A stretch of DNA of 64,000 nt from Minisyncoccota bacterium. Its GTDB lineage: Bacteria; Patescibacteriota; Minisyncoccia; Phycocordibacterales; VMEP01. The stretch is taken from contig JBAZUR010000001.1 in NCBI GenBank assembly GCA_041661305.1, positions 167,077-231,076 of the forward strand, in the 5' to 3' direction. The notes under the pieces were generated by a model that saw only the letters and a list, made by a program, of their open reading frames with translations, did no database searches and had not been told where the DNA came from. Made by a program: the position numbers and the translations under genes. Within the stretch, counting starts at the first letter, position 1, and the number at the start of each line of letters is the position of its first letter. Below are positions 19,392 to 60,303 of the stretch, piece by piece.

Positions 19392-21986
19392 ATGAATCAA
19401 CTAATTAAAAGAAATTATGAGTTAGATATCAGTAGTTATATCTATAAAGTAATTTTTGTTTTACTACTATTAATATTTTTAATAGTTCCTAGTTCTTCGT
19501 TGGCGGGAGGAAGTCAGACTTTTACTAGTAGTGGTACATTCTTTGTTCCAAGTGGTGTGACAGCTCTAACTGTGTATGTTGCCGGTGGCGGTGGTGCCGG
19601 AGCTGGTGGTACTAACGAGGGTGCTGGAGCTGGCGGGGGGGGTGGGGGTTATAGCAGTGGAACAATTGCAGTAAGTCCTGGTGGTGCATATGGTGTTACC
19701 GTTGGTGCTGGTGGTTATCATGGAGGAGCTCCTCATTGTGAAGGTGGGGCATCTAGTCCCGGTGGAGACGGTGGTTACTCATATATTGGTGGAATAATTG
19801 CCTATGGCGGTGGTGGTGGGCAAACAGGCGGTGCTCCTGGAGCCGGTGGTTGGGGCAATGTAGCTTATGGTTCGTATGGCTCGTGGCCACCAAGTAGGTG
19901 GGCAAGTAGCGGTGGCGCCGGAGGTTACAGTGGCGCTGGAGGTGCTGGTGGCGCCGGGGGCTCAACGGGCACCGCCGGCACTTGTACTTATTATTATAAT
20001 TGTAATGAGACGTCGTGCGAGTGTGGCGCATGGACTGGTGGGACCCCTGCAGTAAACCCACAACCAGGTGTTTATTATGGAGGTGGAGGTGGAGGTGTTT
20101 GGTCAGCAGCTCCTTTTGTCCCTGCTACTTGTGATTACAGTCCCACTTACGCAGGAAACGGAGCACCAGGATATGTCATTATTTACTGGACCGTAAACCC
20201 TCCCACCGCATCCGCTTCAGTTTCTCCAAATCCCGTTCCCTATAATGCCAATCCTGGATTCACTCTTTCTTCTACAAACGCCTATTATTGCTACCTTCTA
20301 TTAGACTGGTCAACATACTTAGTTGCCGGTTATACAACATCTGGTACTTATTACGCTGGTTCCTTCACTTCTCCAGGAACCCATAGTATTTCCGCTTATT
20401 GTTACAACTCTGAATGGGTCGGCTCCGGCTGGTCAACAACAAATTTTACGGTAAATAATCCTCCCACCGCTTCCGTATCTGTCTCACCAATATCAGTATC
20501 ATACGGTGCTAGCACGAACGTCACCCTTTCTTCGACAAATGCCTATTATTGTCATGTCTACAGAATAAATAGCGTTGGTACTTGGGTTGAGCTACAGAGT
20601 GGATACCTCACCTCTGGTACTTGGAACACAGGTGGTTTGACCGACCCTGGAACACACTATGGAGCGACGTATTGCTACAACTCCTCCTGGGTCGGCTCTG
20701 GTTGGGCGTATGCCGCGTTCACAGTAAGCTCTGCTCCACCTTCCATCAACAACGTCACTATCAGTAACGGTGTTGTGGTCACCAACGCCGTTAACCAATA
20801 CACAATAACCTCAACCGCGACAGATGCCACTGGTGGTAGCGCTATTACCGATGAACTCGCTTTAATAAATTACCAGGGGGTAAATGCTGGTACTTATCGT
20901 GGATATCTTGGATGGTCATCGGTTGGATTCACCCACTTTGGCGGCGCATACAAAACACCACCAATAGCATGTTCTGGTGGTGGCTTAGGGGCAATTTACA
21001 ACGGCTATGGACCACAATACATCAACCTCATATCTTGCAGTACTTCGGTATCAGGGAACACCCGCACTGTCTCATATGTTGTTACCTTCAACACAAATTT
21101 CACTTCTCCGATAAATAGCAACACCATTTCTGGTTATGCCACCAACAGCTCTACTGGCCTATCCAGCGGTTGGTCTCCGTTTAGTGCGTTTACTATTACA
21201 CCAACATGTTCAAATGGTGCCAACAACTATCCAACCTGTAACACCTGCTCTACTCCACTTGGTTGGAATGGAAGTATTTGTACTGTATGTAGTAATGGTG
21301 GTTGTACCAATGGAAATTGTAACAATGGCGCAAACAATCCAGTGAGTTGCTCCACCTGTACCTCACCTGGATTCATTTGGCAGAGCAGTACTAGTTCTTG
21401 TATCCCATCAACCCCACCAACTGCATCAATCATAAGTCCAGCAGTCAACATCACAATATATGATGACCAGATACAACAGTTCACCGGTACAGCTACAGAT
21501 GACGGTACAGTTGTAGCTTACGAATGGCGTACCAGTAATTGCTCCACCGGAACAATTCTTAGCTCTTTAGCAAACTTCGTTAGATCATTTTCTGTTGGCA
21601 CATACACTGTCTATTTCAGAGCTCAAGACAATGCTGGGTCATGGTCAACGAATTGTCCTTCACGAACCATACAGGTAATTGCCCATAATCAAGTTGCAGG
21701 AGTCTGCGGTTCTGCTAACGGTGTCTCATCTCAAAAGAAACCAACATCCAATCTCTGTAACACACTAGGATTACCTGGACCAACTGTATTACCTGTAGGT
21801 ATTGATACTCTTCCTGAAAACAACCCAGCACTCTCTTGGTCTTGGACTTGTGCTGGTGAATATGGCGGTGCTGACACCTTCTGTGGTTCAAACAGCTCTT
21901 GTGGTGATGGCAAGTGCCAGGCTTCAAAGGGAGAGAGCCCTGCTAGGTGCAGGGCGGACTGTAGGGTTAACTTTTTTGAGTTTTAA
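19392..21986 (+). CDS. Large secreted Gly-rich, Cys-rich repeat protein (864 aa), likely cell-surface or adhesin-like. GC-rich compared with its neighbours.
   Basis: Signal/TM segment. Poly-Gly blocks (GGGGAGAGGTNEGAGAGGGGGGY). At least two ~90-aa internal repeats (NPPTAS.SVSP...LSSTNAYYC...SGT...PGTH...YCYNS.WVGSGW..FTV). C-terminal Cys-rich module. Contains a G8 tract at 19635-19642. Confidence 0.7.
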   Translation: MNQLIKRNYELDISSYIYKVIFVLLLLIFLIVPSSSLAGGSQTFTSSGTFFVPSGVTALTVYVAGGGGAGAGGTNEGAGAGGGGGGYSSGTIAVSPGGAYGVTVGAGGYHGGAPHCEGGASSPGGDGGYSYIGGIIAYGGGGGQTGGAPGAGGWGNVAYGSYGSWPPSRWASSGGAGGYSGAGGAGGAGGSTGTAGTCTYYYNCNETSCECGAWTGGTPAVNPQPGVYYGGGGGGVWSAAPFVPATCDYSPTYAGNGAPGYVIIYWTVNPPTASASVSPNPVPYNANPGFTLSSTNAYYCYLLLDWSTYLVAGYTTSGTYYAGSFTSPGTHSISAYCYNSEWVGSGWSTTNFTVNNPPTASVSVSPISVSYGASTNVTLSSTNAYYCHVYRINSVGTWVELQSGYLTSGTWNTGGLTDPGTHYGATYCYNSSWVGSGWAYAAFTVSSAPPSINNVTISNGVVVTNAVNQYTITSTATDATGGSAITDELALINYQGVNAGTYRGYLGWSSVGFTHFGGAYKTPPIACSGGGLGAIYNGYGPQYINLISCSTSVSGNTRTVSYVVTFNTNFTSPINSNTISGYATNSSTGLSSGWSPFSAFTITPTCSNGANNYPTCNTCSTPLGWNGSICTVCSNGGCTNGNCNNGANNPVSCSTCTSPGFIWQSSTSSCIPSTPPTASIISPAVNITIYDDQIQQFTGTATDDGTVVAYEWRTSNCSTGTILSSLANFVRSFSVGTYTVYFRAQDNAGSWSTNCPSRTIQVIAHNQVAGVCGSANGVSSQKKPTSNLCNTLGLPGPTVLPVGIDTLPENNPALSWSWTCAGEYGGADTFCGSNSSCGDGKCQASKGESPARCRADCRVNFFEF

Positions 21987-22038: not shown

Positions 22039-24000
22039 ATGAACGGAAACGAAATTAGAAAGAACTATTTGGAATATTTTGGCTCGCGAAAACATGCAGT
22101 TATTCCGTCTGCACCGATTATCCCTGAGAACGACCCAACGACACTTTTTACAAGTTCTGGAATGCAACCGTTAATTCCGTATCTTTTGGGTTCTCCACAC
22201 CCAAGGGGCGTGCGCTTGGTCAATTCACAAAAGTGTTTTCGCGCGGAGGATATTGAAGAAGTTGGTGACAATCGCCACACTACTTGTTTTGAAATGTTGG
22301 GAAACTGGTCTTTAGGAGATTATTTCAAAAAAGAACAACTTGGTTGGTTTTTTAATTTTCTTACAGAAGTAGCAAAACTCCAGCCAGAAAAATTATACGT
22401 AACTGTTTTTGCAGGCGAAGAGAAGTATGGAATTCCTCGCGACGATGAATCGGTGGAAATCTGGAAAGAACTTTTTAAAAGTGTTGGTGTTATAGCTAAT
22501 GATGTATTAATTGGAAGCGAAGAGAATGGAGGAAAAGTTGGAATGCAGAGTGGTAGGATTTTTTACTATAACTCCAGGAAAAACTGGTGGAGTCGTTCTG
22601 GTGTACCTGAAAATATGCCAACAGGTGAGCCAGGTGGTCCAGATTCTGAAGTATTTTACGACTTCGGGACACCCCACGACAAAAAATTTGGAGAAAATTG
22701 TCATCCAAATTGCGATTGTGGGCGTTTTATGGAAATCGGTAACTCGGTTTTTATGGAATATCTTAAAATGGACGATGGAAGTTTTTCTTCGCTTCCTCAA
22801 AAAAACGTGGATTTTGGTGGTGGTTTGGAGAGAATTACCGCAGCGAGCATGGATAGTGCTGATATCTTTTCTACGGATTTGTTTTCTCTAATTATTGATT
22901 TTATTGAAAAGCTTTCTGGTAAGAAATATGAAGGAGGAAAAGTAAAAACTGATTCATATTTCCGTATTGTTGCGGACCATATCAAAGGTGCAGTTTTTAT
23001 GATGAGTGGAGGAATTTTACCTTCTAATACTGAGCAAGGATATGTTTTGCGAAGGTTGGTTAGACGTGCAGTGAGATATACTGACGAGCTTGGTATAAAG
23101 CCAAATGAGTTACAAAAAATCGTAGATTCAGTCGCACTGACCTACAAGGAGGCGTACCCAGAAATAATTGAAAACATTGATCATATTCGAGATGGTATTA
23201 AAAACGAAGAGGCAAAGTTTAGAAAGACGTTAGAGGTTGGTATGCGCCAATTTGAAAAAAGAAAGGTGTCTTCGGAGCAGAAACCAAAGGATTCACCTGT
23301 GTTTCGCCATCGCTCGGACGCCATGAGCACGAATACGCGCTCGCGGCGCTCCTCGCTTGACGAAATAAAAAACTCCACTATCAGTGGGCACGAGGCGTTT
23401 CTTCTTTTTACTACGCATGGTTTTCCAATTGAACTAACTCTTGAATTAGCAAAGGAAAAAGAACTTACAGTTGATATCGATGGATTTAAGGAAGAGATGG
23501 AGAAACACAAGGCTTTGTCACGTTCTCAGTCAGACCAAAAATTTAAAGGTGGGTTGGCTGATCATGGAGAAATGGCTGTTAAGTATCACACCGCAACTCA
23601 CTTGCTCCAAAAAGCTCTAAGAGATGTTCTTGGTGAACATGTATTTCAAAAAGGTAGCAATATAACAGGAGAACGTCTTCGCTTTGATTTTTCTCATAAT
23701 CAAAAAATGACAGATGAAGAAAAGCAAAAAGTAGAGAATCTTGTTAACCAAAAAATTGCAGAAGGCCTACCAGTGTCTTACGAGGACGTGCCACTTGAAG
23801 AAGCAGAAAAAAGAGGAGCGATTAGATTGTTTGAGGAAAAATACGGCGACATTGTTCGGGTATATAAAATAGGTGATTTTAGTCTTGAGTTTTGTGGTGG
23901 TCCGCATGTAAGCAATACAAGCGAGCTCGGTAATTTTAAAATCTCAAAAGAAGAAGCTGTTTCTTCTGGGGTGCGTAGAATTAAGGCGATTTTAACCTAA
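22039..24000 (+). CDS. alaS: Alanyl-tRNA synthetase, short form with catalytic and editing regions but no C-Ala domain.
   Basis: N-terminal AlaRS motifs (FTSSGMQPLIPYLLG, FRAEDIEEVGDNRHTTCFEMLGNWS). Editing HxxxH (HTATHLLQKAL). Confidence 0.85.
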   Translation: MNGNEIRKNYLEYFGSRKHAVIPSAPIIPENDPTTLFTSSGMQPLIPYLLGSPHPRGVRLVNSQKCFRAEDIEEVGDNRHTTCFEMLGNWSLGDYFKKEQLGWFFNFLTEVAKLQPEKLYVTVFAGEEKYGIPRDDESVEIWKELFKSVGVIANDVLIGSEENGGKVGMQSGRIFYYNSRKNWWSRSGVPENMPTGEPGGPDSEVFYDFGTPHDKKFGENCHPNCDCGRFMEIGNSVFMEYLKMDDGSFSSLPQKNVDFGGGLERITAASMDSADIFSTDLFSLIIDFIEKLSGKKYEGGKVKTDSYFRIVADHIKGAVFMMSGGILPSNTEQGYVLRRLVRRAVRYTDELGIKPNELQKIVDSVALTYKEAYPEIIENIDHIRDGIKNEEAKFRKTLEVGMRQFEKRKVSSEQKPKDSPVFRHRSDAMSTNTRSRRSSLDEIKNSTISGHEAFLLFTTHGFPIELTLELAKEKELTVDIDGFKEEMEKHKALSRSQSDQKFKGGLADHGEMAVKYHTATHLLQKALRDVLGEHVFQKGSNITGERLRFDFSHNQKMTDEEKQKVENLVNQKIAEGLPVSYEDVPLEEAEKRGAIRLFEEKYGDIVRVYKIGDFSLEFCGGPHVSNTSELGNFKISKEEAVSSGVRRIKAILT

Positions 24001-39247: not shown

Positions 39248-39700
39248 ATGAAAATAAAGATAAAATCTAAAAAGATTTTAGAAAAATCATACGGTATAAT
39301 TGTTGCTTATAAACAAAGCAGTACGGAGACAAAATACCTTATTATTCAAAGCAAAGGTACGAATGATTGGAGTTTTCCAAAAGGACATGCCGAAAAAGAT
39401 GAAACTTCAGTTGAGACTGCATTAAGAGAACTAAAGGAGGAAACCGGAATCTCGCAAATAAGTCTTATTCCCGATGTGTCATTCTCTGATAAGTACAGAT
39501 ATAAAGCCAATGGTATATGGAATCGAAAACAAGCTACATTCTTTGTTGGTATTACAGATAATCTAAATGTAAAAATACAACAAGAAGAAGTGGTAAATTA
39601 TATCTGGTCTAATTATGATGATGCGGTAAAAATTCTAACTTTTGAAAATCAACGAAAAATCTTGCGTGAAGCCTATTCTAAAATACTAGAAATCAATTAG
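39248..39700 (+). CDS. NUDIX hydrolase (Ap4A/NTP pyrophosphohydrolase-like).
   Basis: Canonical Nudix box GHAEKDETSVETALRELKEETGIS. Confidence 0.8.
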   Translation: MKIKIKSKKILEKSYGIIVAYKQSSTETKYLIIQSKGTNDWSFPKGHAEKDETSVETALRELKEETGISQISLIPDVSFSDKYRYKANGIWNRKQATFFVGITDNLNVKIQQEEVVNYIWSNYDDAVKILTFENQRKILREAYSKILEIN

Positions 39701-39798
39701 TAATAAGTCACAGTGTGTTCCTATGTACTGAAAATAATAATTATAGTATTGTAGTGTAATCCTACATAAACAGATAGATCCAGTTTAAATTGATTTTT

Positions 39799-41139
39799 AT
39801 GACCAAAGTTATTACACGTTTTCCACCTTCCCCAACTGGAGAAATTCATATTGGCAACATGCGAACCATGTTGTTTAATTATTTGTATGCAAAATATTTT
39901 AATGGAGAGATTTTCCTTAGGTTTGAGGATACTGATAAAGAAAGGAGTAAAAAGGAATACGAATCTATTGTCATAGATGGGTTACATGCTTTAGGTTTAA
40001 ATTTTGACCATGGTCCATTCAGGCAATCAGAAAGAGGTGCTATCTATAAAGAAAAATTATTAGAACTCATCAAGCTTGGACGTGCTTATGAAGCTGAAGA
40101 CTCATTGGGTGGTTCTGGAAAAGCCATTAGGTTCAAGAATCCGAACAAAATTATAACCTTTGATGACAAAGTTCGTGGTCATGTATCTATTGATTCAAGT
40201 ATTTTTGGTGACTTTGTTATTGCGAGGAATATTGATAATCCAATTTACCATTTTGCTGTTGTTGTGGATGACATGGATATGGGAGTTACCCATATAATTA
40301 GGGGGGAAGACCATATTACAAGTACTCCTAGGCAGATACTTCTACTAGAAGCTTTGGGTGGGAACATACCCGTTTATGCTCATTTGCCACTCATTGTTGG
40401 CGAAGACAAGAAGAAATTGTCTAAACGACATGGTGCCACCTCTGTCAGCGGTTTTTTAAAGCAAGGTTATTTGCCGTCTGCTTTAGTTAATTATCTTGCA
40501 TTCTTGGGATGGAACCCTGGGGGCGAACGGGAAATATACTCATTAAAAGAGTTAACTGAGATATTTGGTTTGGATAGAGTGGGCAAAAATCCAGCTAAAT
40601 TTGATTACAATAAACTCAATAATATAAATTATCATTACATGATTAATTTATCCGAAGACGAATATAGGACAAATCTTTTTATGTTTTTAAATGAAGAATA
40701 CTCCAAACTTTTTAATGCTAATTTCACTATTTCTAATACAGTAATACAAAATGTAATAAAACCAAGAATAAAAAAGTTTTCGGAAGTGTCGGACATGATC
40801 ACTAACGGGGAACTAGATTATTTTTTTAAGAAGCCACCAGTAAATTATGATTTGATTCGGTTTAAAACTGATTCTATTGAAAAGACAAAAAGCATTCTTG
40901 AAAAGTTAAAGGTATTAATAGGGAACATATCAAGTAATGACTGGAACACGGATGGTTTGAAAAATAATATATCTACGCTTTTTACAGAATACGGTGTTGG
41001 AAATGTTCTCCACCCTCTAAGAGTTGTTTTATCGGGGAAAAAAGAATCTCCAGATCCATTCACGTTAAGCTATATTCTGGGCAAAAAAGAGACTTTGGAG
41101 CGAATTGATTCCTGTCTTGCTAAGCCAAATAATTTGTAA
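39799..41139 (+). CDS. gltX: Glutamyl-tRNA synthetase, copy 1 (within the AT-rich island).
   Basis: PSPTGEIHIGNMRTMLFNYLYA (HIGH region), KLSKRHG (KMSKS), full-length anticodon-binding domain. The ORF-track start at 39790 is TTG; ATG at 39799 (MTKVITRF) preferred. Confidence 0.85.
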   Translation: MTKVITRFPPSPTGEIHIGNMRTMLFNYLYAKYFNGEIFLRFEDTDKERSKKEYESIVIDGLHALGLNFDHGPFRQSERGAIYKEKLLELIKLGRAYEAEDSLGGSGKAIRFKNPNKIITFDDKVRGHVSIDSSIFGDFVIARNIDNPIYHFAVVVDDMDMGVTHIIRGEDHITSTPRQILLLEALGGNIPVYAHLPLIVGEDKKKLSKRHGATSVSGFLKQGYLPSALVNYLAFLGWNPGGEREIYSLKELTEIFGLDRVGKNPAKFDYNKLNNINYHYMINLSEDEYRTNLFMFLNEEYSKLFNANFTISNTVIQNVIKPRIKKFSEVSDMITNGELDYFFKKPPVNYDLIRFKTDSIEKTKSILEKLKVLIGNISSNDWNTDGLKNNISTLFTEYGVGNVLHPLRVVLSGKKESPDPFTLSYILGKKETLERIDSCLAKPNNL

Positions 41140-42038
41140 TGAAATATATTGACAATTCAACTTATAAATATAACAAAACGTACCCAATAGTTAAGTTGTC
41201 GGATATTTATTTAGATCAAAAAGATGAAGGGGTGTTGTTAGAAAAAATTAAAGATTCCCCCTGGTATATATACAGTTCAGATTTGATTAAAAAAAATTCA
41301 TTCCTAAAATTAAAACAAATAATATCGTTAACCAAAGACGTTGAGTTAATAGTAAAAACATATTATCCCAATATTAATATCAAGCACCTTTCTATTGGTG
41401 GATCTTATCTTTTCAAAAACGGAGAGTCCAATGATATTGACTTTAACGTAATAGTTGAGGGTAGCTTTTTTGATTATATGGATGTTTTTGAGTTTGATGA
41501 AATTAATAAAAAATTATTTTCCAAAGTCAAAAAAATATCCTTTATGATTTTTGGCGAGGATGATTTATTGTTTGACACTAATATTGATGACACCATTGAA
41601 ACCACTAATTATATCCATACCTCGCTTTGTATGAGAGAGGGGGTTGTTTTCTCGATTAGAAATATCCTTGTGCATGGGTTCGATATATGTAAAAAAGAAA
41701 TTGACACACATAATTTGATAATAAGAATTAAAAGACAGTTGTATCATGCTCGACTCTTGGTTGACGGTAAGGTTAATATACATACAACACAAGAAGAAAG
41801 ATTAGCAAAAGCAGTTAGTCGTATATGTGAAGCAGCTTTTTACCTATCATTAGTATTTCCAGAATTAAAAATTGACCCCGAATCAGTTTTTGAAAGAGAA
41901 ACGACATTGATTACAGAAGGCAACGCAACTGGCGCTTATAGCTGGCTTAAAGAGGTTGAATTTATAGCAGATAATATTGTTGTGAAAGTTTTAAATAATG
42001 GTTATCATGACTCCGTAAGCCCCTATCGTCTAACGTAG
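41139..42038 (+). CDS. Pol-beta-superfamily nucleotidyltransferase domain protein (about 300 aa; MNT/AbiEii/CCA-like GS...DxD core).
   Basis: LSIGGSYLFKNGESNDIDFNVIV matches the hG[GS]-x(9-13)-DhDh NTase motif. Start ATG overlaps the gltX stop (TAATG). Confidence 0.5.
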   Translation: MKYIDNSTYKYNKTYPIVKLSDIYLDQKDEGVLLEKIKDSPWYIYSSDLIKKNSFLKLKQIISLTKDVELIVKTYYPNINIKHLSIGGSYLFKNGESNDIDFNVIVEGSFFDYMDVFEFDEINKKLFSKVKKISFMIFGEDDLLFDTNIDDTIETTNYIHTSLCMREGVVFSIRNILVHGFDICKKEIDTHNLIIRIKRQLYHARLLVDGKVNIHTTQEERLAKAVSRICEAAFYLSLVFPELKIDPESVFERETTLITEGNATGAYSWLKEVEFIADNIVVKVLNNGYHDSVSPYRLT

Positions 42039-42088
42039 GACGTCATCTAATTGAGATGAAAATTTAGGTTCGATACCTAGTAGGGGTT
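42019..42088 (+). ncRNA. tRNA-like cloverleaf candidate (non-canonical anticodon loop) overlapping the 3' end of the NTase gene.
   Basis: Acceptor GCCCCTA/TAGGGGT (7 bp incl. G:U). D-stem GTC/GAC. Anticodon stem TCATC/GATGA with loop TAATTGA (no U33). T-arm TTAGG-TTCGATA-CCTAG (near-consensus T-loop). Not validated by any tool. Confidence 0.2.
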
Positions 42089-42098
42089 CTAGAAAAAA

Positions 42099-43283
42099 AT
42101 GTCAAAAAAGGTGATATTAAATAGCCAGTGTCTCCCTAAAAAGAACTACCATTGTGGAAACGCTGTCAGTCATATTGTTTCTGAAATATCTTATCTTTTT
42201 TTTACTGAATTTGATAAAAAAAATGATTTTTATTTTGTGAATGATTCTTGGAATTTGCATGGTTTACCATTTGAGACCATGTACGTTGAAAAGTTTGGCT
42301 CAAATATAAATTACGAAAAAATAAAAGATTTTGCCGAGGAATGTATTAATTATGCAAAGCACGAAAAATCTTTTTTTAGCAACATTAAGCTTGGTCCAAA
42401 CATTATTGAGCATTCAGATACTGATCCGGAGTTTGTTAGATATACAACCGATATATTTCATGAATTAATAGATAGTAAAATCATTATTAAGACAGGAAAT
42501 CATTATTCTCTTGATCTATTATCAATTAAGAACACTTTAAATTTTGATGGAATAAAAATATTTCCAAGTCAACATAGAACAACAATAGTAAACGACGCAA
42601 AAATGATAAATGGTTTATATCCGATTACAAAAAATAGAGTTTTTTCGCCAAGTATTAATATAGATAATATTAACTACGTTATAAATCCTATTTTTCAGTC
42701 TTTTGTATATCCTTTGTATATAAGCGAAAAGTATGGATTTAATTACCCGGTTTTTTTGTTTACGAGTTCATCTGGACATGGAATGCTTAAGTGGCATTAT
42801 CTTAGAAATATTGTTTCTTTTGCATTGTCACAAAATCATCCGTATGAAAACCTGGTTTTGCACGGGAATATCCTGGGCGCAAACAATAGAAGAATGAGTA
42901 AACATGACAACAATGTTGTTAAGCCGTCGGATTTATATAAAATTCTACCCGATAGAAGATTTGTTAGGCACGTACTAATCAAGTCTATCTCGGACAAAGA
43001 TTTAATGCTTCAGACTGATATCTCTTTTTCAGAATTTAACAAAATAAAGAATAAATTGGACATAATACACACTAATGAATTTAATATACTAAATCCTAAA
43101 AACTTAAATATTACATTGACTAGTATTAAAAACGATTTAAAAAACTTTAAAATAAAAAAAGCTTTTGATTGTTTTGTTGATTTTATTAGAAGAGCCCAGA
43201 TAGTACAAACAGATAGCGTTGTTGATGGCGAGTTTCTTGAGTTAATAAAAATCTGTAATGTTTTTTATGGAAACAAAAAATAA
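42099..43283 (+). CDS. Degenerate GluRS-like class-I aaRS paralog (394 aa); catalytic motifs mutated.
   Basis: NYHCGNAVSHIVSEISYLF aligns with the GluRS HIGH region (HIGN..RTxLFNxLxA). VLHGNILGANNRRMSKHDNNVV aligns with the GluRS HLPLI....KLSKRHG block. Confidence 0.5.
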   Translation: MSKKVILNSQCLPKKNYHCGNAVSHIVSEISYLFFTEFDKKNDFYFVNDSWNLHGLPFETMYVEKFGSNINYEKIKDFAEECINYAKHEKSFFSNIKLGPNIIEHSDTDPEFVRYTTDIFHELIDSKIIIKTGNHYSLDLLSIKNTLNFDGIKIFPSQHRTTIVNDAKMINGLYPITKNRVFSPSINIDNINYVINPIFQSFVYPLYISEKYGFNYPVFLFTSSSGHGMLKWHYLRNIVSFALSQNHPYENLVLHGNILGANNRRMSKHDNNVVKPSDLYKILPDRRFVRHVLIKSISDKDLMLQTDISFSEFNKIKNKLDIIHTNEFNILNPKNLNITLTSIKNDLKNFKIKKAFDCFVDFIRRAQIVQTDSVVDGEFLELIKICNVFYGNKK

Positions 43284-44707: not shown

Positions 44708-46297
44708 ATGAACCTTTTTTACATATCAAGTATTCTTATTTTTTTCGCCAGCTTAGCATTTGGGCTATTTGTTTATGTTAATAACACAAGAGCAAGGTTA
44801 AATAGCTCGTGGTTTTTATTTTCGTCCCTAATTGCTTTTTGGGGGTTTTCTCTTTATGGGGTGACTTCAGCAAAAGATATTGAGACCGCAATGTTATGGC
44901 AATATGCACTTGATGTAATTGCGATTTTCATTCCCGTTCTCTATGTAAATTTTATTTTAAGTTTTCTTGGAATAAAAAATAAAGTAGTCATCTATACAAC
45001 CTTTATTATAGGGTTATTATTGGCAATTTTAAGTACCACAGAATTTTTTAAGGTTGGAATAATAGATCGGTTTGGTTTTTATTGGATAAATCCCGGGCCT
45101 TACTACTTACTCTTTCCAGCGTTCTTTATTCTTTGTGTTATATACGCTTTGTTTCTTCTTTTTCAGGCATACACAAATGACAAAAATAATAAGCGTTTAC
45201 GTGCACAAATACGACTTCAGATAATTGCTGGTGTGATTGGTTTTAGTGGTGGAATTACGAATTTTTTACCACAATTTTTCAACATTTTTCCGTTCGGTAA
45301 TTATTTTGTTCTACTTTATATTTTTTTCATTAGTTATTCTATTATTAAATATAAATTTTTTGATCTCAAAACAGCTGCAACTGAATTATTCGCGGGCGGT
45401 GTTGTTATCTTATTTTTCTTTAATTTGCTTACGTCTGTCACCATTCAAGATTGGCTTATTAGGGCATTACTATTAGCTCTCGTGTCATTCTTTAGTGTTC
45501 TTATTGTGCGCGGTGTTTCAAAAGAAGTTAGGGCGCGCGAACAAATTGAGTTGTTGGCCAACGATTTAAAAATCGCGAATGAGCGTCTGCAATTTTTGGA
45601 CAAACAAAAATCGGAATTCGTTTCCATCGCCTCGCATCAACTAAGAAGCCCACTCACGGCCATTAAAGGATATACATCAATGGTTCTTGAAGGTTCGTTT
45701 GGTTTTATTGAGCCAAAAACAAGAGAGGCTGTTGATAGAATTTTTCAATCAGCGCAAAATCTTGTGGGAATTGTTGACGATCTTCTTAATATAACTCGTC
45801 TTGAGCAAGGGAGAATGGAATACTCTTTTGAAAAAGTTGATTTATCAGCACTGACAAAAGAAATTGTTGATTCACTTTACCCGAATGCATTAAATAAAAA
45901 ATTAGGCTTAACTTTTGAAAACGACAAAGCTACGGATTATTTTGTTAATGCTGACTTACTTAAAATTCGACAGGTCGTACTCAATTTGGTTGATAATGCA
46001 ATTAAATATACGCGCGAGGGAGCAGTTAAGGTAAATGTTTCTAAAATTAATAATGGAAAAGGAGTGCGCGTTGCTGTTGCCGACACCGGTGTTGGAATTA
46101 CCCCCGAGCTCCGTTCACGTCTTTTTGAAAAATTTAGTCGTGGCGATGAGGTTAGCAAGTTGCACACAAATGGCACAGGTCTTGGTTTGTATATCGCCAA
46201 GCAAATGATTGAGGCCCACAAAGGGACTATTGGTGTTAATTCTGACGGAGAGGGTAAGGGCTCAACATTCTATATAGAAATACCTACGCTTAATTAA
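44708..46297 (+). CDS. Sensor histidine kinase with N-terminal multi-TM sensor domain. Orphan, as no response regulator is adjacent.
   Basis: About 7 TM helices. HisKA H-box (VSIASHQLRSPLTAIKGY). HATPase_c N/G boxes (LVDNAIKYT, DTGVGI, GTGLGL). Confidence 0.8.
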   Translation: MNLFYISSILIFFASLAFGLFVYVNNTRARLNSSWFLFSSLIAFWGFSLYGVTSAKDIETAMLWQYALDVIAIFIPVLYVNFILSFLGIKNKVVIYTTFIIGLLLAILSTTEFFKVGIIDRFGFYWINPGPYYLLFPAFFILCVIYALFLLFQAYTNDKNNKRLRAQIRLQIIAGVIGFSGGITNFLPQFFNIFPFGNYFVLLYIFFISYSIIKYKFFDLKTAATELFAGGVVILFFFNLLTSVTIQDWLIRALLLALVSFFSVLIVRGVSKEVRAREQIELLANDLKIANERLQFLDKQKSEFVSIASHQLRSPLTAIKGYTSMVLEGSFGFIEPKTREAVDRIFQSAQNLVGIVDDLLNITRLEQGRMEYSFEKVDLSALTKEIVDSLYPNALNKKLGLTFENDKATDYFVNADLLKIRQVVLNLVDNAIKYTREGAVKVNVSKINNGKGVRVAVADTGVGITPELRSRLFEKFSRGDEVSKLHTNGTGLGLYIAKQMIEAHKGTIGVNSDGEGKGSTFYIEIPTLN

Positions 46298-57635: not shown

Positions 57636-58988
57636 ATGTCTTCAAATGAACAAGTACGTGTTCGAATAGCTCCATCTCCAACGGGGCTTTTCCATATAGG
57701 GACCGCCCGAACGGCTCTTTTCAATTTTCTTTTTGCAAGGAAACATAACGGTGTCTTTATTGTGCGGATTGAGGATACAGACAAAGAAAGATCCCGAAAA
57801 GAGTACGAAGAGAGCATTTTAGAGGGATTATCTTGGCTTAATATTAAACACGAAGAATTTTACCGTCAGTCAGAGAGAACAGAAATATACCGTAAGTACC
57901 TTGAAAAATTAATTGCATCTGGTTCTGCTTATGTTTCAAAAGAGGAAGCAGGGGAAGGTAAAAGAAGTGAGGTCATCCGCTTTAAAAACCCAAACCATTC
58001 AATAACTTTTGACGACTTGATTCGTGGTCCAATCACTTTTCATACCGAGGAACTTGGCGACTTTGTTATTGCAAAGGACATGGAAACCCCGCTTTATCAT
58101 CTTGCTGTAACAATTGATGATCATGAAATGAAGATCACACACGTAATTCGCGGTGAAGATCATATTTCAAATACACCTCGTCAAATTTTACTCCTCGAGG
58201 CTATTGGAGCGACTATTCCAACATACGCACATTTGCCATTAATACTTGCTCCGGATAAGTCAAAATTGTCAAAAAGACACGGAGCAGTTGCTTTAACTGA
58301 ATATCGCGAGAACGGATTTTTACCAGAAGCAATAATAAATTTTTTAGCATTACTTGGTTGGTCACCTCAAAGTAGGGGAGAGGACGAAGAGGTTTTAAAC
58401 TTCGATGAACTTGTTGAAAAATTTGAGCTTGAAAAAGTCGGGAAAAGTGGAGCTATTTTTGATTTGAAAAAATTGGAATGGCTGAACAAGCAATATATTA
58501 AAAAAGTTCCGGAAGAGAAACTTATCAGCATGATAAAAAACGAAATTTCTTCACATAATATTTTCATCGCCGATGAAAAGAAGTTACTTCGCGCTATACC
58601 CTTAATTTCTGAGAAAATTTCTACGATTAAAGAGGCGGGGACTGTTTGGCTAGAGGAATTATCCTTTCTTTCAAAAAACCCAGAATACGATGTGGCTAAA
58701 TTGGTTTGGAAGGAGGAAACTACCGCAAAGACCAGAGAAAATCTTTCGAAAATTCTAGAAATATTAAATAGCGTAGAAAGCGCTGATTTTTCTGCTGAAC
58801 GAATTAAGGAATTAATTTTCCCATTTGCCGATGAGGTTGGTAGAGGTGGAGTTTTATGGCCGATGAGATTTTCCTTAACTGGACAGGACAAATCACCCGA
58901 CCCATTTATGAGTGCTTATTTTCTTGGAAAAGAAGAGTCCATATTAAGAATTTCTAAGGCGATTAAACTATTAGAAAAAAATGAATAG
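57636..58988 (+). CDS. gltX: Glutamyl-tRNA synthetase, copy 2 (in core dcw-adjacent context).
   Basis: APSPTGLFHIGTARTALFNFLFA, KLSKRHG. Full length (450 aa). Confidence 0.9.
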   Translation: MSSNEQVRVRIAPSPTGLFHIGTARTALFNFLFARKHNGVFIVRIEDTDKERSRKEYEESILEGLSWLNIKHEEFYRQSERTEIYRKYLEKLIASGSAYVSKEEAGEGKRSEVIRFKNPNHSITFDDLIRGPITFHTEELGDFVIAKDMETPLYHLAVTIDDHEMKITHVIRGEDHISNTPRQILLLEAIGATIPTYAHLPLILAPDKSKLSKRHGAVALTEYRENGFLPEAIINFLALLGWSPQSRGEDEEVLNFDELVEKFELEKVGKSGAIFDLKKLEWLNKQYIKKVPEEKLISMIKNEISSHNIFIADEKKLLRAIPLISEKISTIKEAGTVWLEELSFLSKNPEYDVAKLVWKEETTAKTRENLSKILEILNSVESADFSAERIKELIFPFADEVGRGGVLWPMRFSLTGQDKSPDPFMSAYFLGKEESILRISKAIKLLEKNE

Positions 58989-60303
58989 TCTTTTTGTAAA
59001 AAAATTTACTTTGTTTCTTTCTCTACTGATTCTTAGTATACCTTTGGTGAGCTTTGCTGAGGAAGTAGTCACACCCAACACAACAGAAGCTGTGTCGCAA
59101 AAATCAGCCTATCAAATAGAGATAGATAAGAGGAACGAAGAGATCGCCAAACTTGAAGCTGAGATAAAACAATATCAGGGGCAAATTGAAATAACAGCAA
59201 AAGAAGCTGCAACCCTGAAAAGTCTTATAAAACAGCTTGATTTAACGCGAGCAAAATTATCTACAAATATTAAACTTACCGAGAAAAAAATATCTGGCGC
59301 AAATACAACTCTAAATAAACTCAGTGAACAAATTGAAGACAAAAACCTAAGAGTTAAAAATAGCCGTGAGGTAATCGCAAAAAATATAAGAATTGTTTCT
59401 GAAAAAGAAGGGGAGTCAACAATAGAAATACTTCTTTCTGAATCGAGTTTTTCAGATGTTTGGGTTTCGCTCGATCAAACAGCGCAATTTGAGCGTGCTG
59501 TTAAAGACCATATTGATGAATTGAGGGAGGTAAAACAAAGTCTTGTTAAAGACAAGACAGCTGCAGAAAACGTTAAAAAAACACTAGTCAGTCTTAAAAG
59601 TAATCTTGGTGATCAAAAAATTCTTGTTGATCAAAATAAAAACGAAAAAACAAAAGTCTTAAAAGAAACTAGTAGTAAAGAGTCAGAGTACAAGAAACTA
59701 CTAGCAGAGCGTCTAGAGAAAAAAGAGCAGTTGGAGGCTGAAATTTTAGACTTTGAATCCAAGATTAAACTTGACGTTGATATTTCAAAATTACCATCTG
59801 CAGGGAAAGGAATATTAAGCTGGCCAGTTTCTTCTGTAAGAATTACCCAATACTTTGGGAAAACACCTTTTGCTACAAAAAACCCGCAAGTTTACAACGG
59901 AATGGGGCATAACGGGATTGATTTTGGTGTGCCAATCGGAACACCAATTAAATCATCTGCCAGTGGTGTTGTTTATGGGACAGGGAATACTGACACAGCG
60001 TGTTATGGAGTCTCTTACGGTAAGTGGGTTCTTGTTAGACACGAAAATGGTCTAGCTACGTTATATGCTCATCTATCTTTAATTAAAGTTTCCACTGGTG
60101 ACAATGTTCAGTCGGGAGATATTATTGGTTATAGTGGAAATACAGGCTACTCAACTGGCCCACATCTACACTTTACAGTTTATGCAGCGGATGCCGTCCA
60201 CATATCAGGCCCAACTGAGTATAAGAGTAGGATTTGTGGGACATACCTACGAATGCCAGTCGCACCTAAGGCTGGTTACCTTAATCCCTTGTCTTATTTG
60301 TAA
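58981..60303 (+). CDS. M23-family peptidoglycan metalloendopeptidase with an N-terminal coiled-coil region (EnvC/NlpD-like).
   Basis: Signal peptide. Long coiled-coil. LytM domain (GHNGIDFGVPIGTPI, HLHFTVY). Confidence 0.8.
   Translation: MNSLFVKKFTLFLSLLILSIPLVSFAEEVVTPNTTEAVSQKSAYQIEIDKRNEEIAKLEAEIKQYQGQIEITAKEAATLKSLIKQLDLTRAKLSTNIKLTEKKISGANTTLNKLSEQIEDKNLRVKNSREVIAKNIRIVSEKEGESTIEILLSESSFSDVWVSLDQTAQFERAVKDHIDELREVKQSLVKDKTAAENVKKTLVSLKSNLGDQKILVDQNKNEKTKVLKETSSKESEYKKLLAERLEKKEQLEAEILDFESKIKLDVDISKLPSAGKGILSWPVSSVRITQYFGKTPFATKNPQVYNGMGHNGIDFGVPIGTPIKSSASGVVYGTGNTDTACYGVSYGKWVLVRHENGLATLYAHLSLIKVSTGDNVQSGDIIGYSGNTGYSTGPHLHFTVYAADAVHISGPTEYKSRICGTYLRMPVAPKAGYLNPLSYL

Follow-up and report, generated by a model that had tools for sequence, protein, structure and literature searches.

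In class I aminoacyl-tRNA synthetases (aaRSs), the residues most critical for ATP chemistry are the first histidine and the glycine of the HIGH motif and the lysine of the MSK segment within KMSKS. Active enzymes with non-canonical versions of these motifs exist, such as TrpRS with TIGN and GlnRS with VMSKR. In the class Ia enzymes IleRS, LeuRS, ValRS and MetRS, the aspartate of a further motif, GWD, binds the α-ammonium group of the substrate. Here we analyze a gene, termed T, that encodes a 394-residue relative of these class Ia enzymes and lies in a 64,000-nucleotide (nt) stretch of contig JBAZUR010000001.1 from a Minisyncoccota bacterium (the whole stretch is henceforth called the window). 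T is preceded by a gene derived from tRNA-Glu and, further upstream, by genes for an orphan nucleotidyltransferase (NTase), termed U, and a full-length GluRS paralog, termed GluRS1.

Several systems with one or another of these ingredients have been described. tRNA-Other of Bacillus cereus is an atypical tRNA paralog that is charged by a synthetase and serves purposes other than ordinary decoding. A tRNA-Gly of Staphylococcus aureus, likewise a synthetase-charged paralog of a standard tRNA, is dedicated to non-decoding use by FemXAB (PMC9976931). The known MetRS-like proteins of hydrazine synthetases (PyrN, Spb40, Tri28) do not depend on tRNA and act alongside a lysine N-hydroxylase and a partner that is a zinc cupin (PMC8664883). 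The ascamycin/dealanylascamycin cluster combines genes for an APS kinase, a sulfotransferase and a UbiE-like methyltransferase with those for a full-length and a 370-residue AlaRS homolog (PMC4257720).

Identity and active-site conservation of T

An earlier note, made from the sequence alone, had described T as a degenerate GluRS paralog encoded two protein genes downstream of a full GluRS. The 394-residue open reading frame (ORF) is real, a full GluRS gene does lie two protein genes upstream (39790–41139; TIGR00464, E = 1.6e-125), and T is indeed homologous to class I aaRSs, its signature motifs deviating from the canonical ones. In the source, a Candidatus Paceibacterota genome, NCBI labels the protein identical to T as a ‘class I tRNA ligase family protein’. 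T and its motifs are located as follows:

42099–43283, + strand: gene T, 394 residues, minimal class Ia aaRS-like protein
42150–42161, + strand: HCGN (residues 18–21), HIGH equivalent, aligned to HVGH/HLGH of IleRS
42249–42275, + strand: WNLHGLPFE (residues 51–59), equivalent of class Ia GWDxHGLPxE with Asp replaced by Asn, aligned to WDCHGLPIE/WDTHGLPVE of IleRS
42891–42905, + strand: RMSKH (residues 265–269), KMSKS-loop equivalent, aligned to KMSKS of IleRS

The proposed GluRS paralogy did not hold. BLASTP of T against GluRS1 gave a best E-value of 1.3, hhalign assigned the family profile a probability of 1.6%, and the alignment was no better than chance; the GluRS profile PF00749 was matched neither by T (E ≤ 1) nor by any of 23 family members (E ≤ 0.01). 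Sequence profiles and an AlphaFold model instead identify T as a relative of the class Ia enzymes IleRS, ValRS, LeuRS and MetRS. The class I catalytic-core profile PF00133, which covers the Ile, Leu, Met and Val synthetases, was matched by all 23 family members, 13 of which also matched the MetRS model. A profile search of the PDB returned IleRS as the nearest characterized relative (the 14 best matches, down to E = 3.4e-12), followed by ValRS, LeuRS and MetRS, with CysRS marginal. In the same search, MshC was not significant (E = 3), and neither PyrN nor any GluRS, GlnRS or Glu-Q-RS/YadB chain matched at E ≤ 10.

The AlphaFold model of T (predicted local distance difference test, pLDDT, 92) has as its top Foldseek match the LeuRS of Mycoplasma mobile (3ziu), which naturally lacks CP1. 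Comparison figures for T against individual families were highest for MetRS (30.3), CysRS (28.4), ValRS (28.2), LeuRS (27.9) and IleRS (26.8), followed by the PyrN MetRS-like domain (26.1), MshC (25.9) and ArgRS (about 19–22), and lowest for GluRS (at most 19.9), Glu-Q-RS (17.3) and GlnRS (at most 16); the structure is not closest to GluRS-type catalytic domains. The core is predicted to consist of two Rossmann halves and a KMSKS loop. In the model, a connective segment of about 70 residues with short strands takes the place of CP1 between the Rossmann halves, and four helices (residues 306–390, about 90 residues) form the C-terminus where a full anticodon-binding domain would be expected. The models PF08264 and PF13603 found no match in T, unlike in the LeuRS of the window, which offers a normal contrast with both editing and anticodon-binding domains present.

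The earlier note had read HCGN and RMSKH as altered signature motifs, and profile alignment to IleRS confirms that NYHCGN (residues 16–21) and RMSKH (residues 265–269) stand at genuine HIGH and KMSKS positions. In HMMER alignments to IleRS structures, NYHCGNAVS pairs with HLHLGHALN/HVGHALG and RRMSKHDNNVV with KMSKSKGNVV; the profile of the T family aligns HcGNaiS with HVGHALG and pMSKhsnn with KMSKSKGN, and the LeuRS of the window aligns its GWDAFGLPAE with WNLHGLPFE of T. We counted motif conservation over the 23 homologs, which are 29–58% identical to T. H18, G20 and N21 occur in all 22 members that have a residue there, whilst W51, N52, G55 and E59 as well as H255, G256, S267 and K268 are present in 23 of 23, M266 in 22 and H269 in 21; D262 is kept in all or nearly all members. 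Position 265, the first KMSKS residue, is variable (P in 14 members, R in seven, I and T in one each). The family motifs can be written as HxGN and [PRIT]MSKH; they preserve the first His, the Gly and the second Lys but depart from the canonical sequence at the fourth HIGH residue and at the first Lys. The assertion that the ATP-binding residues are substituted is accordingly correct for the fourth HIGH position (H to N) and the first KMSKS position and wrong for the first His, the Gly and K268, which are kept wherever a member has a residue there. HIGN is the neighboring GluRS's own normal motif. Among the GluRS enzymes of the same loci, presumably active neighbors, Asn, Gly or Thr is usual at the fourth position (HIGN, HIGG, HIGT).

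Conservation of the ATP-site residues across 29–58% identity suggests that T is probably still catalytic. These counts indicate that its variant motifs are fixed by purifying selection and not a product of decay. A degenerate pseudo-enzyme, as the earlier note had it, is not supported, given motifs fixed over this range with His, Gly and the MSK Lys retained, and random decay into a pseudogene was rejected since the ORF is intact and the motifs are kept across about 25 homologs. At the GWD aspartate, T carries Asn52, a substitution shared by all 23 members and by two sister families of short proteins ([WY]N). An invariant Asn at the α-ammonium site points to an altered acid substrate rather than to loss of function.

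The T family is very rare and constitutes an accessory gene in very few genomes. It comprises 25 clusters among 5.8 billion proteins and 22 representatives at E ≤ 1e-30 among 1.84 billion proteins; three loci were found among 185,579 species-representative genomes and six in a metagenome contig collection. The homologs, about 25, belong to Paceibacterota, part of the candidate phyla radiation (CPR). None was found on viral contigs, and a phage origin was rejected on this ground.

Below the T family, the searches returned at least two sister families of class Ia-like proteins of 380–480 residues from metagenomes (P0033, P0038–P0048, P0052, P0055 and P0060, all encoded outside the window). One carries SIGQ and RMSNR together with a CxxC...CxxC knuckle, the other TLGH and no KMSKS, and both have Asn at the GWD Asp position. 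One sister group is clearly a full-length relative of T (hhalign probability 99.9%, E = 1e-36). These families bear on a rather improbable alternative, the one preferred in the earlier note, in which T is a dead pseudo-synthetase that binds tRNA(Glu) or a tRNA-like RNA as a regulator, a chaperone, a decoy or a specificity subunit for GluRS or the NTase. The sister motifs deviate further from the canonical ones and are still conserved, which suggests that the core function of the clade might be binding; in T itself, the α-ammonium Asp is Asn in all members, the fourth HIGH and first KMSKS residues are non-canonical for class Ia, and the tRNA-like element 1–29 nt before the T start codon could be a cis-acting tRNA mimic for autoregulation. 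Against this, the retention of H18, G20, N21, M266, S267, K268, H255, G256 and D262 would be difficult to account for if T neither bound nucleotides nor acted as a catalyst, and both Asn at the fourth HIGH position and a first KMSKS residue other than Lys occur in active class I enzymes.

A tRNA-Glu-derived gene upstream of T

The 60-nt spacer in front of T is occupied by a tRNA gene that does not figure in the earlier note and that shares its first 20 nt with the end of the U ORF:

42019–42089, + strand: tRNA-Glu-derived gene called by ARAGORN; loop UAAUUGA (A33, triplet AUU), G1·U72, U73, no encoded CCA

When a 111-nt region was searched, the Rfam model RF00005 scored 39.2 bits against a gathering score of 29. 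A scan of the whole window at gathering scores and an E-value scan of 351 nt both missed the gene, apparently owing to speed filters. Atypical tRNA genes can thus escape a standard Rfam scan of a whole contig, and such filter-dependent misses may be common in CPR annotations. The minimum free energy fold is a cloverleaf (−26 kcal/mol, z = −3.85).

For comparison across genomes, we label loci with L-numbers and group the contexts of T into 11 non-redundant lineages; the window corresponds to L001 and L002. Homologs of the tRNA lie at the same position upstream of T in L021, L022, L023, L003, L013 and L026. An alignment of these six and the window copy supports cloverleaf pairing in 98.6% of its cells, with compensatory changes at 10 pairs; none of 500 shuffles reached this value, and slid controls paired in 40–57% of cells. 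A covariance model built from the homologs scored the window copy at 83.7 bits and revealed a new copy in L011 (61 bits), directly upstream of an NTase gene of a second family, N, and T. With RF00005, the scores were 57.6 (L010), 52.8, 49.2, 43.3 and 39.2 (window). The copies compare as follows:

L010: canonical tRNA-Glu between GluRS and N, with UUC, G1-C72, A73 and encoded CCA
Window and L021: 1-72 pair G·U, position 73 U, triplet AUU (A33), no CCA
L022 and L023: 1-72 pair G·U, position 73 U, triplet AUA, no CCA
L003: 1-72 pair A-U, position 73 U, triplet CUA, no CCA
L013 and L026: 1-72 pair U-A, position 73 A, triplet CUU, no CCA
L011: tRNA-like, G1-C72, A73, CCA encoded, anticodon arm cut to a 4-bp stem and a 5-nt loop

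Bacterial tRNA-Glu is recognized by an ‘augmented D-helix’, made up of U11-A24 and U13·G22(··A46) with nucleotide 47 absent, and additionally by U34, U35, C36 and A37 in the anticodon region and by G1-C72 (PMC9976931). All seven aligned sequences have U11-A24, U13·G22 and a 4-nt variable loop. Of the anticodon and G1-C72 set, the cassette tRNAs keep U35 only, and the L010 copy alone is canonical. A weak 1-72 pair, as found in the cassette tRNAs, is a determinant for GluRS2-type enzymes and for amidotransferases that handle tRNA-bound Glu (PMC9976931). The retained GluRS identity elements, together with a co-travelling clade of GluRS, suggest that glutamylation of the RNA probably persists. A tRNA(Glu)-related role, which the earlier note had also considered, is strongly suggested by this adjacent gene.

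The discriminator base lies 1–29 nt upstream of the T start codon in five lineages, and from this spacing T and the tRNA are almost certainly co-transcribed. In L003, the tRNA is kept beside U and T with no GluRS nearby; that it abuts the start of T even there suggests that T is tied first of all to the tRNA. This locus, the sole one with U, tRNA and T that has no GluRS, also harbors, on the strand opposite to T and about 700 nt downstream of it, a tRNA-Gln(UUG) gene (L003 11880–11954, −).

Is this RNA a decoder or a carrier? The window and L021 loops have A33, the other five aligned copies have U33, and the L011 loop comprises only 5 nt. The variant triplets (window, L022, L023, L003, L013, L026) are all of the form N-U-N: U35 never changes, and U32, U33 and a purine at position 37 are mostly kept. 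The constant U35 and largely kept loop features suggest that the loop remains under some constraint despite the drifting triplet. We saw no signs of EF-Tu evasion, the T-stem pairs 50-64 and 51-63 of the cassette tRNAs being the same as in the canonical L010 tRNA-Glu. The weakened 1-72 pair and the lineage-variable or defective anticodon loop argue for a carrier; to judge from these features, the cassette tRNA is most likely a carrier kept out of translation and not a decoder.

Were the RNA a decoder, T and the tRNA could form an orthogonal translational pair resembling pylT-pylS that acts at reassigned or ambiguous codons (UAG in L003; AAG, UAU or AAU elsewhere), an idea that we regard as highly improbable, if conceivable for L003. 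The position of the tRNA directly upstream of a synthetase-like gene would suit such a pair, as would the canonical 7-nt format with U33 and purine 37 in six of the seven loops, the anticodon CUA of L003, where TAG is a rare stop codon at the locus (1 of 17), and the tolerance of anticodon changes expected from an anticodon-blind enzyme. It is at odds, however, with anticodons that vary among close relatives while the pocket residues of T are invariant, with the A34 anticodons AUU and AUA, which are atypical for bacterial decoding, with A33 in the window and with the 4-bp stem and 5-nt loop of L011. In the window, TAG is a common stop (10 of 43), reassignment of the abundant sense codons AAU, UAU and AAG would be highly deleterious, and Asn at the α-ammonium site argues against a standard amino acid.

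Linked synthetases, nucleotidyltransferases and tailoring enzymes

Besides T and the tRNA, the cassette in the window includes these genes, listed here with a second GluRS gene located elsewhere in the window:

39248–39700, + strand: NUDIX hydrolase gene (PF00293, E = 8e-16), probable accessory cassette member
39790–41139, + strand: GluRS1, full-length GluRS paralog (PF00749, E = 5.5e-81, plus PF19269; TIGR00464, E = 1.6e-125)
41139–42038, + strand: U, orphan Pol-β-type NTase, 299 residues, with conserved SIGGSYLF..NDIDFNVIV and FMIFGEDD
57636–58988, + strand: GluRS2 (HIGT/KLSKR), overlapping the start of a peptidase M23 gene (58981–60303, +)

Across the lineages, the order of genes is as follows, with M denoting an S-adenosylmethionine (SAM) methyltransferase:

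Window (L001, L002) and L021: NUDIX – GluRS – U – tRNA – T
L022: GluRS – U – tRNA – T – NUDIX
L023 (and fragment L025): APS kinase – GluRS – U – tRNA – T – sulfotransferase
L003: sulfotransferase – U – tRNA – T
L013 and L026: GluRS – tRNA – T
L010: GluRS – tRNA-Glu – N – M – T
L004–L006, L012 and L014: GluRS – N – M – T – peptidase M23
L009: GluRS (reverse strand) – His_Phos_1 – N – M – T – APH
L011: tRNA-like – N – T – x – GluRS – M23
L007, L008 and L024: N – M – T

Co-occurrence with an NTase, a check proposed in the earlier note for U, holds in 10 of the 11 lineages and, with the GluRS linkage, supports a functional tie of T to these neighbors. A GluRS gene lies at most three genes from T in nine, in varying order and orientation; a tRNA gene accompanies T in seven lineages and M in five. 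T is always last in its co-directional array. Stop and start codons overlap between M and T (by 4–8 nt) and between GluRS1 and U (as TAATG), and a search for terminator-like sites from the NUDIX gene to the end of T gave only two weak intragenic matches.

GluRS1 has the motifs HIGN and KLSKR and is 64–66% identical to the cassette GluRS of L022 and L023, compared with 43% to GluRS2; judged by these identities, it belongs to a distinct, cassette-linked GluRS clade. The arrangement of GluRS2 and M23 recurs in other genomes, among them L004, L011 and L012, where it borders the N-M-T cassette; this pattern suggests insertion of the cassette beside an ancestral GluRS-M23 pair. The NUDIX gene has a 91%-identical ortholog upstream of GluRS1 in L021; in L022, a 39%-identical NUDIX gene immediately follows T, and in L023 a further one is found 2 kb downstream. 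A NUDIX domain (PF00293, E = 3.7e-14) is also found in the 941-residue LeuRS of the window (9677–12502, +), at residues 378–509 right after the CP1 editing domain; an association of NUDIX domains with synthetases thus recurs in this genome. The genes for a PlsC-type acyltransferase and a HAD protein downstream of T were rejected as cassette members, as a methyltransferase gene takes their place in the 93%-identical L021 and they are absent elsewhere.

A slot between DnaK-DnaJ-PlsC and a conserved Methyltransf_20 – HisKA_7TM kinase pair holds U-tRNA-T in the window and L021 and an inositol-1-phosphate synthase – N – M cassette in the Yonathbacteria locus L017 (L017 5797–9871; L021 9128–11654; window 44708–46297). 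The presence of both cassettes in the same slot suggests a hotspot for variable islands.

U has no Pfam or NCBIfam match. Its family of about 20 members shares SIGGSYLF..NDIDFNVIV and FMIFGEDD. In profile comparisons it weakly matches an MNT-type NTase (9xbd, E = 0.044) as well as the N family, there in the NTase core (hhalign, E = 0.0055). U lies directly upstream of the tRNA and T in the window, L021, L022, L023 and L003. We rejected it as a divergent member of N or M, since it has only that NTase core motif in common with N and nothing with M. P0176, one of the homologs, carries a fused APS-kinase domain (E = 7e-43), and a U-family NTase 46% identical to that of the window overlaps an upstream 2H phosphoesterase gene (‘2'-5' RNA ligase’, PF13563) at loci with no T nearby (L019 7466–8864; L020 1186–2584).

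N represents a second NTase family (PF01909). Its model (pLDDT 92.5) joins an NTase core most similar to RNA 3'-terminal transferases with an oligonucleotide/oligosaccharide-binding (OB) fold, a predicted architecture that fits single-stranded nucleic-acid ends. With at least 185 clusters, the N family is far larger than that of T and has full-length homologs of about 40% identity in Streptomyces, Nocardiopsis and relatives. In Haloactinospora alba (L016 9060–12160), genes for an APH-like kinase, N and a 363-residue protein of unknown function lie inside a bacteriophage exclusion (BREX) island (PglY, PglZ ... BrxD). In S. lydicus (L015 7146–11903), N occupies a variable region near a His_Phos_1 phosphatase and a methyltransferase, and the cassette appears eroded, the kinase and 363-residue genes being present as fragments. 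N-M pairs separate from T exist beside inositol-1-phosphate synthase (L017). The Haloactinospora 363-residue protein was considered as class Ia-like because of HLWNCAT, a CxxC knuckle and LSRTRGHG, and rejected, as hhalign detected no relationship to T or to the sister family with the zinc knuckle. M is a generic UbiG/BioC/HEN1-like SAM methyltransferase, with the RNA 3'-end methyltransferase HEN1 among its top profile matches.

Some of these contexts would fit a conflict or stress module that acts on tRNA 3' ends (in defense, as a toxin-antitoxin-like system or in tRNA repair), in which the NTase modifies or repairs and T recognizes or re-charges the tRNA. N stands in the Haloactinospora BREX island beside an APH-like kinase and in the S. 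lydicus variable region near a His_Phos_1 phosphatase, the U homolog overlaps a gene of the 2H phosphoesterase family involved in RNA-end healing, M matches HEN1, the cassette of L007 and L008 sits amid IS110, resolvase and ParA genes, and the U-T and N-M cassettes share a variable slot beside a methyltransferase-histidine kinase pair. We nevertheless consider such a role very unlikely: PADLOC returned nothing for T or U, by which a known defense system was rejected, and only marginal hits for N and M; linkage to an apparently housekeeping GluRS-M23 pair in several genomes suggests a physiological role; T is missing from viral contigs; and the structural resemblances of the partners are no more specific than their folds.

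A sulfotransferase-like gene flanks U-tRNA-T in two arrangements (L023/L025 and L003; 55% identical), and in L023 the cassette is bordered directly by an APS kinase gene upstream and by the sulfotransferase gene downstream. Taken together, the accessory enzymes would suit chemistry on ribose hydroxyls, phosphates or nucleotides, for which an RNA 3' end and a small nucleoside would both qualify. The second of these options leads to an explanation that is unlikely in our view and yet the foremost rival: T would be a tRNA-independent, ATP-dependent ligase for a small molecule, plausibly of the aminoacyl-nucleoside or sulfo-nucleotide type. The NTase, methyltransferase, kinase or APS kinase, sulfotransferase, phosphatase and NUDIX enzymes would tailor its product, and the GluRS with its private tRNA would serve as Glu donor, as a self-resistance copy or as both. 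PyrN-type proteins are tRNA-independent by experiment and activate L-Glu (PMC8664883), and the ascamycin cluster brings together a similar mixture of genes with AlaRS homologs (PMC4257720). The sulfur genes of L023 and L003 and the fusion of a U homolog to APS kinase fit as well, as do the two GluRS genes of the window genome, which a resistant-target arrangement predicts, and Asn in place of the α-ammonium-binding Asp, which suggests an unusual acid substrate. The principal objection is the tRNA gene 1–29 nt upstream of T in five lineages, kept even where GluRS is missing (L003). T moreover has no sequence affinity to MshC (E = 3) or PyrN (none at E ≤ 10), the sulfur genes are absent from the window, L021, L022 and all N-M-T loci, the OB fold of N is typical of nucleic-acid binders, and the linked GluRS of L004, L011 and L012 stands in the GluRS-M23 arrangement, as GluRS2 does, and so looks housekeeping rather than like an extra resistant copy. 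No gene for a cupin or flavin N-monooxygenase (N-hydroxylase) was found beside T in the Pfam-annotated gene tables and among further neighbors, the flanks of L012–L014 and L026 having been screened for partner families only (tblastn/HMM); such genes thus occur in no annotated context.

Two further features of the window concern neither the cassette nor its partners. AlaRS (22039–24000, +) has 653 residues, ends with tRNA_SAD and apparently lacks the C-terminal C-Ala domain. The gene for an 864-residue protein with a glycine-rich domain (19392–21986, +; PF21722) is the only GC-rich stretch of the window (46% versus 31–40%), with reversed GC skew.

A proposed pathway and its relation to known systems

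The explanation that we favor, and that we regard as roughly an even call, is that T is an active, anticodon-blind enzyme that acts on the acceptor end of a dedicated tRNA-Glu-like RNA, with catalytic competence suggested by the conserved ATP-site residues and tRNA binding by homology and adjacency. T would then be a minimal class Ia core capable of catalysis, with equivalents of HIGH and KMSKS in a Rossmann fold, a short insertion in place of CP1, no editing domain and a stub of the anticodon-binding helical domain. As T has lost most of the anticodon-binding domain, the anticodon of its substrate would be free to vary. In such a pathway, the tRNA would first be matured, its 3' end possibly being built or altered by the linked Pol-β NTase (U in the window, N elsewhere), and the cassette-linked GluRS would then charge it with glutamate. 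T, using ATP, would next carry out a second acyl-adenylate-type step at the acceptor end. It might activate a carboxylate without a free α-ammonium group, such as the one in the side chain of tRNA-bound Glu or that of a different acid; adenylation of a carboxylate of this kind would rationalize the change from Asp to Asn. A close alternative for this step is direct acylation of A76 by T. Finally, a lineage-variable set of SAM methyltransferase, NUDIX, kinase or APS kinase, sulfotransferase and phosphatase enzymes may tailor the product. Any specific chemistry for T is considerably less probable than the general scheme.

A broader version of this proposal, which we put forward as a tentative and somewhat doubtful idea, envisages a tRNA-based acyl-carrier system of CPR bacteria that is insulated from translation. 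GluRS would load a non-decoding tRNA-Glu paralog, and an anticodon-blind class Ia enzyme would subsequently act with ATP on the bound residue or on A76. T would in this case come near the ‘urzyme-plus’ core postulated for ancestral synthetases, with the Asn signaling a carboxylate or non-amino-acid substrate.

Several observations weigh against an active enzyme dedicated to the tRNA. Class Ia paralogs of similar size, MshC and the MetRS-like proteins of hydrazine synthetases, are tRNA-independent, and the sulfotransferase and APS kinase neighbors suit small-molecule chemistry better. The catalytic Lys is lost in the sister short families, so the wider clade may not depend on adenylation, and in T the change from Asp to Asn could simply lower activity. 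No tRNA gene was found in the retrieved flanks of four of the 11 lineages (L004, L007, L009, L012/L014), and with U33 and a purine at position 37 in six of the seven 7-nt loops, decoding is possible. Lastly, N is found separately from T in actinomycete variable or defense regions and beside inositol-1-phosphate synthase, so its role need not involve T or tRNA.

If T charges or processes the RNA, it would provide a natural example of anticodon-independent, minimal class Ia recognition that bears on synthetase evolution and on the engineering of orthogonal pairs. A new tRNA-dependent pathway would come to light in CPR bacteria, which are poorly understood, and a broad orphan NTase family that is also present in Streptomyces would gain a function. 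Should the acyl-carrier proposal be true, the pathway would be of a new kind, and T the first free-standing class Ia core with a private tRNA.

The literature that we searched describes no equivalent of the T cassette; its parts have counterparts to differing degrees. The nearest relatives of T are class Ia aaRSs, IleRS by sequence and M. mobile LeuRS (3ziu) and MetRS by structure. Whereas these enzymes have 500–1000 residues, T has 394, with an anticodon-binding domain of about 90 residues, Asn in place of Asp, HxGN in place of HxGH and the first KMSKS Lys not kept, and it is paired with a tRNA of variable anticodon. Like T, Glu-Q-RS (YadB) and GluRS2-type enzymes are class I paralogs, either shortened or duplicated, whose tRNA targets have changed; the window genome has two GluRS genes, and the GluRS2-type determinant, a weak 1-72 pair, is present in the cassette tRNA (PMC9976931).

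Among the tRNA-independent systems, the MetRS-like hydrazine-synthetase proteins differ from T in sequence, where no match was found, and in context, T being linked to a tRNA gene and GluRS with no cupin or N-hydroxylase genes nearby. MshC, the Cys:GlcN-Ins ligase and a CysRS paralog, matches T only at E = 3, and the sequence affinity of T is to IleRS, not CysRS. No MshA-, MshB- or MshD-like neighbors of T were seen, inositol-1-phosphate synthase is adjacent in L011 only, and mycothiol synthesis is not known from CPR bacteria. The gene set of the ascamycin cluster is comparable to L023, with its APS kinase – GluRS – U – tRNA – T – sulfotransferase arrangement, but the ascamycin aaRS homologs are class II AlaRS-like proteins, and sulfur genes occur in only two to three T lineages. 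No genes for sulfate adenylyltransferase, sulfatase or radical-SAM enzymes were seen near T.

The dedicated tRNAs, tRNA-Gly for FemXAB and tRNA-Other, offer the parallel on the RNA side. The cassette tRNA differs from them in its tRNA-Glu origin, its drifting triplet and the co-encoded GluRS paralog, NTase and minimal class Ia-like enzyme. Synthetase paralogs in non-translational chemistry and non-ribosomal tRNAs are each known; what appears new in the literature searched is their combination in the T cassette, in which a minimal class Ia core of fewer than 400 residues is joined with its own tRNA-Glu-derived RNA, a GluRS paralog and a terminal NTase.

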